Source: Escherichia coli (GTDB lineage: Bacteria; Pseudomonadota; Gammaproteobacteria; Enterobacterales; Enterobacteriaceae). Taken from it: a stretch of 63,217 nucleotides of DNA. The stretch is from the NCBI RefSeq assembly GCF_003334255.1, contig NZ_QOWU01000026.1; one strand, 5' to 3'. The first letter of the stretch is position 1. Each line of letters starts with the position of its first letter. Below, piece by piece: positions 58,271-61,355 of the stretch. The position numbers were made by a program, and so were the translations under genes. The notes beneath the pieces were generated by a model. It had not been told where the DNA came from, did not search any database, and saw only the letters and a list, made by a program, of their open reading frames with translations.

Positions 58271-58688
58271 TATTCAGCAGGTGCTTGAACGCTGGGGCGC
58301 ATGGGTGGCCAATAATCATGAGGATGTGAGCTGGTCGCCCATTGCCGCCGGATTTAAGGGGCTGATCCCGTCAAAGGTTAAATCACGGCCTCAGTGTACC
58401 GATGACGATGCGCTGATTATCAGCAATTGCATGGCGCAACTGAACGTCAACAACAGCGATTTGCATGATTTTCTGTATGATTATTATGTGTTCGGGATGA
58501 CGCTTATGTCACTGGGCCGTAAGCATGGGCGCTCTGATTGCTGGGCCGGGCGGGTACTGCAAAAAGCAGAAGGTGTTATTGAGGGGATGTTGATCATGCA
58601 GGGAGTAAAGCTGGAAATGGACAGGTACGTTGAGCGTGAACCATCAGGATCACAGGCCAGTCAGTTTGCCGGACGTGCGGGAAATTGA
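58263..58688 (+). CDS. Q: late antiterminator Q (phage 21/933W type), 141 aa
   Basis: ORF track 58158..58688. ATG 58263 gives [45 protein letters not shown]..., recognised as the Q21/Q933W family. Confidence 0.8.
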
Positions 58689-58887
58689 AAGCGCGAGTTT
58701 TTACTGTAGAATAGCTGCGGGTGCTTGAGGCTGTCTGCCTCGGGCATGCAGCCGTAAGGCAGACAGAGAAAAGCCCCAGTTAACATTACGCGTCTTGCAG
58801 GACGCTTAACATTAATCTGAGGCCAAATCTATGACTTACAAACTTAGGTTAGCCTCTTACGTGCCGAAAGGCAAGGAGAAGTAGGCT

Positions 58888-59043
58888 ATGAAGCAGCAAA
58901 AGGCGATGTTAATCGCCATGATCGTCATCTGTATTACCGTCGTAGTGATAGCACTGGTAACGAGGAAAGACTTCTGCGAGGTACGAATCCGAACCGGCCA
59001 GACGGAGGTCGCTGTCTTCGTAGACTACGAATCTGAGAAGTAA
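58888..59043 (+). CDS. hok: Hok/Gef-family type I toxin (51 aa)
   Basis: Not in the ORF track. MKQQKAMLIAMIVICITVVVIALVTRKDFCEVRIRTGQTEVAVFVDYESEK is colinear with HokC/Gef. A 17-codon mok-like uORF (58831-58884) ends 3 nt before the hok ATG. The 5' GGTGCTTGAGG (58720-58730) is complementary to the 3' CCTCAACGCACC (59093-59104), like the tac/fbi fold-back. Confidence 0.85.
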   Translation: MKQQKAMLIAMIVICITVVVIALVTRKDFCEVRIRTGQTEVAVFVDYESEK

Positions 59044-59217
59044 GAGACCAGGCAGGGGAGTAATCTCCCGCCACCTCTGATGTGTCTGGCATCCTCAACG
59101 CACCCGTACTTTATTTGTCATATGCTCCGCAAAATGCAGGTTGTCGTTGCAACCAATGCGGTAATTTTTTGTGTGCGAGTGCTCAAAAAACGTTGATTTT
59201 CATAAAAGGATGATTTT

Positions 59218-59325
59218 ATGCTGCCAGACCAGCGACCAGCGACCAGCGACCAGCGACCAGCGACCAGCGACCAGCGACCAGCGACCAGCGACCAGCGACC
59301 AGCAGTAAATCAAGAAAGTCTGTAA
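59218..59325 (+). other. RBS + ATG + repeat-encoded leader: displaced N-terminus of the RM gene
   Basis: AAGGA (59206-59210) lies 7 nt before ATG 59218. The frame runs through the heptamer array and stops at TAA 59323-59325. It is offset from the RM frame by one repeat unit. Confidence 0.7.
59227..59303. repeat. heptanucleotide SSR (GACCAGC) x 11, perfect
   Basis: Counted unit by unit from the sequence. There is no stop codon in any frame of the array. Confidence 0.97.
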
Positions 59326-59393
59326 AATCTGTTGAGCCGGAAATTACCGAACTGGCGAACTCATGGCTTAAATCTTACAGGCTTGATTACAAG

Positions 59394-61355
59394 TTGCAGA
59401 ATGCATCACTTAACGGAGAGATCGATAACGCACTGGACGCTTATTTTTCGAAAAATGGCGGCGCAGGCGGTAATCGTCCCGACGTAAAACTCCTTGTTAA
59501 GGACAAATACGGCAAGCAGTATCCCGTTCTCATCGAGTATAAAGGCTACAAGGACAGGCTTATCAGACTTGGCAGCAACGGTATTATTGAGAACAAAGAT
59601 GCCAGAAAAGAATGGAATTTTAAAAATATTAATGGATACGCGGTGAATGGCGCAGTCCATTATGCCAACGCACTTCTTCAGTTCACCAATTACCCTGATA
59701 TTATTGCTATTGGTATGACCGGCTGGCGCGATGATGGTACAGGCGAACTGCATCATGAAATCGGCGTGTGGTACGTATCAAAGAATAATTTAGGAGCCGG
59801 ACAGAAGGTTGGTGAATTCACCGACTTATCGTTCCTTGCTGACAAAAATGTTGATGGATTTCTCAACAAGATAAAGCTGCTTAATCTTCCTCCCGAAGAA
59901 CTGGAAAAAATCAAGGCCAGCAAAGAGGAAGAGATAGACACGCGACTTTCCCGTCTGAATAACGATATTTACCAGAATGAAAAGGGGCTTGGTGAAAGCG
60001 ATCGTGTTTACCTTGTTGTGGCTACCGTTATTGCAACGTTGGGGATTCCGGGAAAGTTAGCACCGCTGGATAAAAAAGAACTGACCTCTTCAACGGAGGA
60101 GGACTTGCGTGATGGTGATATTATTTTCAGGAAAATAAGGAATTTTTTAAGGCTGAAAGCTGTTCCTGAAACAAAAAGAGAAATGATTTTGCGCTCGTTG
60201 CAAAATACGCTGTGGACTGAAAACATTAACAAACCAGTCAACGGTGAAAGCCAGTTAAAGCGCGTGTTTGTTAAAGTTGTTGATGATCTTGGGGAGTATT
60301 ACAAAATTGGACTGACCACCGATTTTACGGGCAAACTGTTTAATGAGATGTATCGCTGGCTTGGATTTACGCAGGACAAGCTCAATGACGTCGTTCTGAC
60401 ACCACCTTATGTTGCCACATTGCTGGCACGACTCGCCAGAGTAAACAAAGATTCCTATGTGTGGGATTTTGCTACAGGTTCTGCGGGATTGCTTGTGGCT
60501 GCAATGAATGAAATGCTCATTGACGCCAGAGAAAATATTCACTCACCGAACGAACTACAACTTAAGGAAGCGCAAATCAAGGCTGAACAGCTTCTTGGCC
60601 TTGAGGTGTTATCCAGTATTTATATGCTGGCCATCCTGAATATGATTTTGATGGGGGATGGTAGCTCGAATATCCTCAATAAAGACTCGCTGGCCGATTT
60701 TGACGGCAAGTATGGATTTGGGAAAACAGGAGAAAAATTCCCTGCGGACGCATTTATTCTCAATCCTCCGTATTCAGCTAAAGGTAACGGCATGATTTTC
60801 GTGCAGAAGGCGCTGTCGATGATGGATAAAGGCTATGCTGCAGTGATTATCCAGAGTTCAGCTGGCACAGGAAAGGCTACGGAGTACAACAAAAAAATAC
60901 TCAAGGAAAATACCTTGCTGGCAAGCATCAAAATGCCTGCGGATCTGTTTATTGGTAAATCAAGCGTTCAGACGTACATTTACGTTTTTCAGGTAAAAAT
61001 TCCGCATAACGCGAAACAGGCTGTTAAGTTTATCGACTTTTCCAATGACGGCTACGCTCGCTCTAATCGCAAAAAGGCAAGAAACAATCTTGTTGATGCC
61101 GATCGTGCAAAAGAGCGTTATCAGGAGGTTGTGGATCTGGTTCACTTCGGGAAAGGTTGCCTTAATATCTTTACGGAGGATGAATATTTTGAGGGAACAA
61201 TCGATCCTGATAGTGGTGAGGACTGGAATCAGACCAGGCCAGTAGATGCTAGGCCAACGCTGGAGGATTTCAAAAAGACGGTAGGTGATTACCTTGCATG
61301 GGAGGTCTCGCAATTACTGAAAAAACAAGGTGAAAACAATTTTGCGGGAAAGTAA
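59394..61355 (+). CDS. type IIB (BcgI-A-like) restriction-modification subunit: PD-ExK nuclease + gamma-class N6-adenine methyltransferase
   Basis: Nuclease motif GGNRPDVKLLV...YPVLIEYKG (PD..ExK). AdoMet motif VWDFATGSAGLL. Catalytic motif LNPPYSAKG. Coordinates follow the ORF track (TTG start). The frame is actually open from 59214, and the natural start is probably ATG 59218 in a different repeat state. Confidence 0.7.
   Translation: MQNASLNGEIDNALDAYFSKNGGAGGNRPDVKLLVKDKYGKQYPVLIEYKGYKDRLIRLGSNGIIENKDARKEWNFKNINGYAVNGAVHYANALLQFTNYPDIIAIGMTGWRDDGTGELHHEIGVWYVSKNNLGAGQKVGEFTDLSFLADKNVDGFLNKIKLLNLPPEELEKIKASKEEEIDTRLSRLNNDIYQNEKGLGESDRVYLVVATVIATLGIPGKLAPLDKKELTSSTEEDLRDGDIIFRKIRNFLRLKAVPETKREMILRSLQNTLWTENINKPVNGESQLKRVFVKVVDDLGEYYKIGLTTDFTGKLFNEMYRWLGFTQDKLNDVVLTPPYVATLLARLARVNKDSYVWDFATGSAGLLVAAMNEMLIDARENIHSPNELQLKEAQIKAEQLLGLEVLSSIYMLAILNMILMGDGSSNILNKDSLADFDGKYGFGKTGEKFPADAFILNPPYSAKGNGMIFVQKALSMMDKGYAAVIIQSSAGTGKATEYNKKILKENTLLASIKMPADLFIGKSSVQTYIYVFQVKIPHNAKQAVKFIDFSNDGYARSNRKKARNNLVDADRAKERYQEVVDLVHFGKGCLNIFTEDEYFEGTIDPDSGEDWNQTRPVDARPTLEDFKKTVGDYLAWEVSQLLKKQGENNFAGK

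Follow-up and report, generated by a model that had tools for sequence, protein, structure and literature searches.

The A subunit gene of a restriction-modification (RM) system carried by an Escherichia coli prophage is probably governed by a translational phase switch (contingency locus), in which a perfect array of the heptanucleotide GACCAGC separates the start codon from the conserved N-terminus of a BcgI-like enzyme. The locus lies in a 63,217-nt stretch of E. coli DNA, hereafter called the window (contig NZ_QOWU01000026.1 of the RefSeq assembly GCF_003334255.1). An initial annotation, made from the letters of the window alone, had proposed a contingency-type repeat switch placed between the true start codon and the RM gene. 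The comparison with other genomes strongly supports this proposal: the annotated TTG start is not the native one, the arrays range from 5 to 120 copies and differ widely between genomes with identical flanks, the body of the gene is intact and the phases are about evenly represented.

The locus displays several features of a contingency locus. The array is perfect, its unit is not a multiple of three nucleotides, and it occupies the 5' part of the coding region, after the start codon and ahead of the conserved protein. Translation out of frame terminates early, and the body of the gene is intact throughout.

According to the mechanism favoured here, the RM gene would have lost its own start codon, and translation would begin at ATG 59218, proceeding through (GACCAGC)n into the conserved N-terminus. 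Replication slippage would quickly add or remove 7-nt units, each of them shifting the frame by one. Mismatch repair in E. coli should not act on loops of 7 nt. With copies divisible by 3, the full-length enzyme would be made from ATG 59218 with an N-terminal (DQRPATS)n/3 tail. With copies equal to 1 mod 3, only ATG 59210, devoid of a spaced Shine-Dalgarno (SD) sequence, would be in frame, giving a probable weak or leaky state with at most weak expression. With copies equal to 2 mod 3, as in the window, no start would be available and the upstream open reading frames (ORFs) would end at TAA 59306 or 59323. A population of lysogens would be expected to be a mix of restricting and non-restricting cells. 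The nuclease and methyltransferase activities should switch together because both are held by one polypeptide. Any adaptive benefit could be of the bet-hedging type, phage defence being set against the cost of restriction or of DNA uptake.

The array, its start codons and its phases

The GACCAGC array is far beyond chance, no other array detected by TRF in the window having more than five copies (Table 1). Its unit is stop-free in all six frames, and three units encode one DQRPATS heptad, which is identical in all three sense frames. ATG 59218 precedes the array by only 9 nt; it was found in every locus examined, and a database protein (P0006) begins there. The RM frame opens at 59214, right after a TGA (59211-59213), and runs to the TAA at 61353, with TTG 59394 as its sole ATG, GTG or TTG ahead of the gene body. 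Both other frames hit stops within 20 nt past the array. The 11 perfect copies, the ATG preceded by AAGGA at a 7-nt spacing and closed by the first TAA of its frame, and the RM frame open upstream of the TTG had all been read in the initial annotation, in agreement with the sequence.

A second start codon, ATG 59210, shares its frame with GTG 59171, and another database protein (P0010) begins at it. It is replaced by ATA in two loci (L024 and L150) and is thus dispensable; lacking a spaced SD, it is probably a weak start. Two substitutions in the leader are synonymous in its frame, which could suggest a conserved coding start. Such a pattern is however expected about one time in six by chance and, given the ATA of the same two loci, its use is not claimed. 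In the 17-bp imperfect direct repeat of the leader, the first copy (TCAAAAAACGTTGATTT) has TTG where the second (TCATAAAAGGATGATTT) has ATG.

Copy-number states were simulated in silico by swapping the length of the array. With 9 or 12 copies, ATG 59218 opens an ORF of 707 or 714 aa, respectively, these being the ON states that the initial annotation had predicted. With 10 or 13 copies, ATG 59210 opens an ORF of 712 or 719 aa, and with 8, 11 or 14 copies neither ATG reaches the RM frame. As written, the 11 copies of the window correspond to the no-start phase (2 mod 3). The initial annotation had considered both 11 and 10 copies as OFF, hence one ON state and two equal OFF states. This is right for 11 copies, whereas 10 copies do not give a clean OFF state, as the second ATG, which had been missed, is then in frame; three states reached via two starts are predicted instead.

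Table 1. Features of the switch region, the RM genes and the adjacent toxin gene, in window coordinates
Feature	Position	Strand	Description
hok/gef-family toxin gene	58888..59043	+	NCBIfam Hok family; annotated by PGAP as 'Hok/Gef family protein' at every related locus
17-bp imperfect direct repeat, TCAAAAAACGTTGATTT / TCATAAAAGGATGATTT	59183..59217	+	TRF period 17, 2.1 copies, 83% matches; holds the SD and the first ATG
SD sequence AAGGA	59206..59210	+	7 nt ahead of ATG 59218, abuts ATG 59210; kept in all alleles
ATG-1, alternative start (second frame)	59210..59212	+	MILCCQTS-DQRPATS...; in the RM frame when copies = 1 mod 3
ATG-2, main start	59218..59220	+	MLP-DQRPATS...; in the RM frame when copies = 0 mod 3
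(GACCAGC)x11	59227..59303	+	perfect array; TRF score 154 (period 7, 11.0 copies, 100% matches)
Body of the BcgI-like A subunit	59304..61355	+	PD...EYK nuclease motif (N-terminal) and N6-adenine methyltransferase with NPPY
TAA	59306..59308	+	shuts the ATG-1 frame at 11 copies, right after the array
TAA	59323..59325	+	shuts the ATG-2 frame when there are 11 copies
Conserved N-terminal block, KSVEPEITELANSWLKSYRLDYK	59325-59393	+	upstream of TTG 59394
TTG	59394..59396	+	start taken by ORF callers and PGAP
S subunit gene (BcgI-B-like)	61415..62509	+	two target-recognition domains; Pfam Methylase_S, 2 stretches; PADLOC Specificity_II
24-bp in-frame repeat, ATATAGAAGAGCTGGAAGCGGCCC (YIEELEAA) x2	61832..61883	+	TRF; central region of the S gene

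Among 5,426 complete E. coli genomes, 29 have the locus, as does one phage record. Full-length sequences from 27 of these genomes, the phage and the window were compared, making 29 sequences in which the array has 11 to 120 copies and the RM body, of 675-676 codons, is never interrupted. Some of them can be grouped into sets with flanks that are 100% identical over 2,950 bp (900 bp upstream and 2,050 bp downstream). In the set including the window, the array has 11 copies in the window, 65 in SCU-104, 83 in G6/7, 92.7 in G1/2 and 99 (in frame) in G8. The RM gene of G8, G6/7 and G1/2 is identical, and G8 and G6/7 have the S allele in common as well. Further sets carry 31, 56, 58, 64, 72.9, 76, 79 and 83 copies, 50 and 82 copies, and 23 and 30 copies. 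Within such sets, the copy number changes between close relatives much faster than point substitutions accumulate. In all, the leader, the array and the gene are found together in 40 or more assemblies besides the window, spanning 5 to 120 copies; those beyond the 29 sequences have arrays of 5, 9, 13, 14, 16, 19, 34, 38, 47, 64, 72 and about 102. Individual counts include 72 copies in CP027328, 54 in DETEC-S792, 66 in JNEC-KY173, 64 in 2013C-3250 and 56 in O111 7-15 45A. The copy number is thus not fixed at 11 in related genomes; a number fixed at 11 in all reads and in related genomes would, according to the initial annotation, have refuted the switch.

All three phases occur in nature. The 23 uninterrupted arrays of the complete genomes are distributed as 5 in the ATG-2 phase, 8 in the ATG-1 phase and 10 in the phase with no start, a split compatible with a uniform one (chi-square p=0.44). 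This distribution bears on an alternative that we consider unlikely, in which the main role of the repeat would be to tune the protein: the disordered (DQRPATS)n tail would, by its length, modulate the activity or the assembly of the enzyme, possibly alongside an ON/OFF effect. Arrays typically count 50-100 units and reach 120, which corresponds to a tail of 280 residues, and the activity of NeuO, encoded by the heptanucleotide-switched neuO gene of the E. coli prophage CUS-3, increases linearly as more heptads are present. However, with two thirds of the genomes outside the ATG-2 frame, tuning cannot be the only effect; in addition, the tail is attached to that end of the multi-subunit enzyme which carries the nuclease, and even a long one could equally well make no difference there.

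The enzyme, its native N-terminus and the other alternatives

The RM gene product matches the PADLOC model REase_MTase_IIG (E=3e-232, residues 10-675 of the extended protein) and Pfam N6_Mtase (E=6e-21), with a match to VRR_NUC below threshold. Its PD...EYK motif near the N-terminus is invariant in the alignment of homologues, and NPPY is found in the translation. The available homologues are all at least 72% identical, which makes this alignment shallow, and a sequence search of solved structures yielded no relative of the protein. No HsdR-type subunit is encoded at the locus, where the neighbours are only Q, hok and prophage genes. One phage record annotates a homologue of the A subunit as 'BcgI alpha chain-like'. 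By analogy, the system can be described as BcgI-like, with a nuclease-methyltransferase fusion and a separate S subunit, 'type IIB' being a label given on the same basis.

When the RM frame is extended upstream to the end of the array and used as a query, homologues of Neisseria, Providencia and Methylophilaceae (677-689 aa, 72-73% identity) cover 100% of it. The homologues devoid of a repeat start with an ATG just ahead of the block SVEPxIAxLANxWLKSYxLDYKL, upstream of the position equivalent to the TTG. Because this conserved block lies upstream of TTG 59394 in the window too, the TTG is, judging from the homologues, an annotation artefact and not the native start. Two other E. coli alleles were identified, one with about 95% DNA identity and one with 87% protein identity. 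Both of these, alleles 2 and 3, lack the TTG, and PGAP starts them at an ATT or 300 nt downstream, the latter choice removing the nuclease motif. Since the TTG is absent there, canonical starts able to reach the conserved N-terminus lie only upstream of the array, in every allele. Two Neisseria homologues (P0097 and P0046) differ at their extreme N-terminus by an in-frame SNK repeat (MTQASKKSNKSNKSNKSIEP versus MTQASKKSNKSIEP), so that this end of the enzyme family tolerates length variation.

The position of the N-terminus also speaks to the view that the array belongs to a 5' untranslated leader and that the enzyme is made in every phase from TTG 59394 or from another internal start, the repeat being then a neutral variable-number tandem repeat (VNTR) or an mRNA-level tuner. 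PGAP and the ORF caller do choose this TTG, the catalytic PD...EYK motif is located downstream of it, and a ribosome ending at TAA 59323 could in principle reinitiate 70 nt further on. This view is nevertheless quite improbable, as about 24 residues upstream of the TTG are conserved across genera and covered by the family profile, and as the TTG, besides its loss in the two alleles, has no recognisable SD. Moreover, the RM frame stays open through the array and for 90 nt beyond it whereas the other frames are promptly stopped, which is not the pattern of a neutral leader.

A decaying remnant, in which an expanding selfish or slippage-prone array would have inactivated the RM gene and would serve no reversible function, is even harder to sustain and we deem it very improbable. 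It would account for most genomes being outside the main frame and for some S genes being annotated as split or with IS1, and comparable BcgI-like systems are inactive elsewhere. Against it, the 2-kb body is free of frameshifts and stops in all 29 sequences, and the index of the assembly collection lists an identical 653-aa product in 1,611 blocks, for the most part on contigs of 2-10 kb. At least three alleles, with protein identity as low as 87%, keep the array, which is found at two prophage positions and in Salmonella; the start codon, the SD and the purity of the array are conserved across alleles that are 13% apart in protein sequence. About a third of the genomes are in the ATG-2 frame, as would be expected for a live switch.

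On the minus strand, an ORF runs through the array (59200-59313 in the window, 3719-4486 in L001, and equivalents) and is named 'YXWGXW repeat-containing protein' or 'hypothetical protein' in RefSeq. That this ORF, although annotated in most RefSeq genomes, should be the real gene is scarcely credible, since it exists only because the GACCAGC unit is stop-free in any frame, its annotated ends move with the phase of the array between genomes (e.g., 3219, 3301, 3317) as does its length, and in the window it has only 37 aa and no conserved flanking coding sequence. If the switch works as proposed, RefSeq annotation of the locus is systematically wrong, combining this spurious minus-strand protein with a truncated 'HsdM family' gene that starts from the TTG, from an ATT or 300 nt downstream.

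Several points weigh against the phase switch on the A subunit. The first one is the copy number of the window, as 11 units make 77 bp, the exact length expected of a longer array collapsed by a k=77 de Bruijn assembly, and four genomes with flanks identical to those of the window carry 65-99 copies. The 11 copies may therefore be an assembly collapse, and the 'currently OFF' state of the initial annotation, correct for the sequence as written, hangs on a number that could be an artefact. They may also be real, since a k=119 contig has an array of 5 copies and a 4.2-Mb contig one of 13, and collapse is unlikely in either. Many short-read contigs stop inside the array. The window itself stops about 100 bp into a DUF6645-family prophage gene, a plausible breakpoint for a draft contig. 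Short-read assemblies break at the locus, or may collapse there, and the locus is thus largely invisible in draft genomes. Long reads bring their own difficulty, as six long-read assemblies have arrays interrupted by GACAGC units or poly-C that resemble homopolymer errors, so that phases derived from assemblies may be off by a unit.

Other reservations concern the variation itself. The usual length of the arrays is far beyond the needs of switching, and an array of 83 copies recurs in three sequenced loci of different sources, a fourth case being deduced from a matched length only. What the genomes demonstrate by differing is instability; they do not establish reversible switching or a phenotype.

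Expression and activity of the enzyme raise further objections. A promoter and terminator scan of 58600-59450 detected nothing just upstream of the ATG; the sole match to a promoter consensus, TTGAAA-16-TAGAAT (58685-58712, 10/12), overlaps the end of the Q gene and is pR'-like. The RM module would then sit in the leader of the late operon, as lambdoid phages have pR' there, and it may be expressed in lysogens through read-through, or else at a late stage of lytic growth only. BcgI-type methyltransferases prefer hemimethylated DNA, and a passage from OFF to ON in an unmethylated chromosome should consequently be self-toxic, a cost that the switch leaves unexplained. BcgI-like systems that look intact are silent in the methylomes of N. 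gonorrhoeae and B. trehalosi; hence, the activity of the present enzyme cannot be assumed. Likewise, a phasevarion role should not be assumed, as E. coli type I systems that are not phase-variable had no regulatory effect where this was examined.

Prophage context and related repeats

The first 25 kb of the window are E. coli chromosome and match the Symbioflor G strains, whereas the prophage is a different mosaic, closest to that of SCU-104. Upstream of the array lie the lambdoid prophage genes encoding NinG, NinH and the antiterminator Q, followed by a hok/gef toxin gene. This toxin gene is always directly upstream of the unit formed by the leader, the array, the RM gene and the S gene, including in the third allele (L174-L176), where the unit stands upstream of Q instead of downstream. 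This adjacency, kept in a different prophage position, suggests that hok, the leader with its array, the RM gene and the S gene travel as one module.

The same device is found ahead of another enzyme. In Pectobacterium carotovorum DSM 30168 (L036, 6520-7662), an SD and an ATG followed by (GACCAGC)x17 lead in frame into the gene of an EcoRI-family adenine methyltransferase (Pfam E=1e-130). Homologues of this methyltransferase without the repeat have about 337 aa and their own ATG, whereas the Pectobacterium gene has no canonical start of its own, and NCBI places its start at an ATC directly behind the array. In Enterobacterales, two unrelated families of methyltransferases are thus headed by one and the same heptamer device. 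A scan for exact arrays was run with one genome per species. Most of the matches listed come from GC-rich taxa such as Planctomycetota and Actinomycetota, in which the heptamer lies between genes or is unrelated, and only the Pectobacterium locus shares the architecture among them. Searching a protein database with a DQRPATS repeat peptide gave four weak matches, composition filtering being active.

The S gene harbours repeats as well. The 24-bp in-frame unit ATATAGAAGAGCTGGAAGCGGCCC occurs twice in the window and three times in SCU-104, whose sequence matches the window in every other respect across 1,300 bp; in other genomes it occurs three or four times. In a second allele group, an 8-nt array, (GCGGACTC)n, which the window does not have, is located in the middle of the S gene (L004 6554, L022 6575, L023 6502, L026 6125, L027 6126). 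With 6, 6 and 18 copies, PGAP annotates a full-length S subunit, whereas with 4 and 16 copies it annotates a truncated S subunit of about 176-200 aa and a separate downstream ORF. This 8-nt array looks like a second frameshifting switch, between a full and a half specificity subunit.

Elsewhere in the window, a perfect 9-bp repeat, (GCTGAACTG)x5, occurs at 39581-39625 and encodes (VQP)x5 in a minus-strand ORF of 125 aa (39438-39815). Since the length of its unit is divisible by 3, the frame cannot be shifted by it, though the repeat may be polymorphic in length.

Taken together, these repeats lead to a wider proposal, possible yet put forward only tentatively. Enterobacterial prophages would carry a portable SD-ATG-(GACCAGC)n cassette replacing the native start of at least two unrelated methyltransferase families, namely the BcgI-like RM of E. 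coli and Salmonella and the EcoRI-family enzyme of Pectobacterium. In E. coli, the cassette would act through its two starts as a three-level switch (strong, weak, off), to which the switches of the S gene would be added, i.e., a 24-bp unit setting spacer length and, in one allele group, the 8-nt array choosing between full and half S. Subpopulations of lysogens would then differ in whether they restrict and in what they recognise, and E. coli, including Shiga-toxigenic E. coli (STEC) O111, would possess a prophage-borne multi-switch RM or phasevarion system.

If the phase switch on the A subunit is true, some commensal, probiotic (Symbioflor G strains) and Shiga-toxigenic (O111:H8) E. coli hold a prophage whose restriction barrier and methylation flicker within a clone. 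This would bear on phage therapy, horizontal gene transfer, the interpretation of methylomes and strain typing, and would raise the question of how a type IIB-like enzyme turns on in an unmethylated chromosome without killing the cell.

Comparison with known systems

In general, E. coli is regarded as having no phase-variable RM systems driven by repeats; in the reviews and surveys consulted, these are confined to other genera and to types I and III. E. coli is absent from a survey of type I repeats, and a 2025 review of RM biology brings up phase variation for types I and III alone. Literature searches on the repeat unit, on phase-variable RM in E. coli prophages, on loci used in multiple-locus VNTR analysis, and on BcgI with phase variation gave no account of this locus; REBASE and most subscription journals were outside their scope, so that prior notice is possible. 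As far as found, no earlier account exists of a BcgI-like enzyme, or of any RM system of E. coli, under the control of such a repeat switch, whereas the design itself has precedent. The initial annotation had presented a heptamer switch on a prophage-borne RM system as unfamiliar for E. coli and the heptamer unit as unusual. The former statement holds, as far as found, for the RM system, but a prophage heptamer switch has its precedent in neuO; the latter fails, as neuO also uses a 5' heptanucleotide array.

Methyltransferases switched by repeats are known from the type III mod phasevarions, from the type I hsdM and hsdS genes and from the prophage methyltransferases of B. trehalosi (CAAG or ACAGC repeats). 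As in the present locus, the unit is not a multiple of 3, it is located in the 5' coding region, the number of copies sets the frame, and some of these genes are prophage-borne. Those systems are however of type I or III or are solitary methyltransferases, they belong to Pasteurellaceae, Neisseria, Helicobacter and similar taxa, and their units are of 1-5 nt, usually in fewer than 40 copies. In addition, the polypeptide switched here holds both nuclease and methyltransferase, and restriction and modification would go off together.

With BcgI (type IIB) and NgoAVIII-like enzymes, the system shares a two-gene organisation, an A subunit made of an N-terminal PD-(D/E)xK nuclease and a gamma-type N6-adenine methyltransferase (NPPY), a B or S subunit with two recognition domains and the absence of HsdR; no repeat switch is described for either of them.

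Two other systems offer partial parallels. In lic1 of Haemophilus influenzae, a chromosomal gene for lipopolysaccharide (LPS) phosphorylcholine, CAAT repeats and start codons in two frames lead to strong, weak or no expression. Both loci have two ATGs in different frames upstream of a frameshifting repeat and a three-state switch, which is predicted here; lic1 differs by its tetranucleotide unit, its chromosomal position and its LPS function. EcoR124I and EcoR124II carry an in-frame central repeat in the S subunit, with a unit of 4 residues, and a change in its copy number alters the length of the recognition-site spacer. The 24-bp repeat of the present S gene is likewise short, in frame, copy-variable (x2, x3 or x4) and located between two recognition domains. 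Its unit encodes 8 residues instead of 4, and a spacer effect would hold here by analogy.

In neuO, which has a poly-psi domain and is carried by prophage CUS-3 of E. coli K1, an array of AAGACTC begins 2 nt after the start codon, varies from 2 to 93 copies and gives the ON state only at copies divisible by 3. Three units encode the heptad RLKTQDS, which belongs to a disordered tail at the N-terminus, the OFF state accounts for 65.6% of complete genomes, and both the switching and its phenotype were shown experimentally. No homology of the present locus to neuO, to its AAGACTC unit or to the CUS-3 phage was found, the unit being different and the protein family unrelated, and the locus is best regarded as an analogue of neuO and not as a relative. 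The two differ in that neuO controls a capsule O-acetyltransferase and not a DNA enzyme, has one start codon instead of two in different frames, and switches in experiments, whereas switching is proposed here from sequence comparison. The likenesses are nonetheless extensive: both are cargo genes of E. coli prophages with a perfect 7-nt array within a few nucleotides of the start, tens of copies (2-93 versus 5-120), a full product (predicted here) only at copies divisible by 3, three units encoding a 7-residue repeat of an N-terminal tail and about two thirds of the genomes out of frame. If the present switch is true, the idea of a 'mobile contingency locus' applied to neuO would extend from surface modification to DNA defence.

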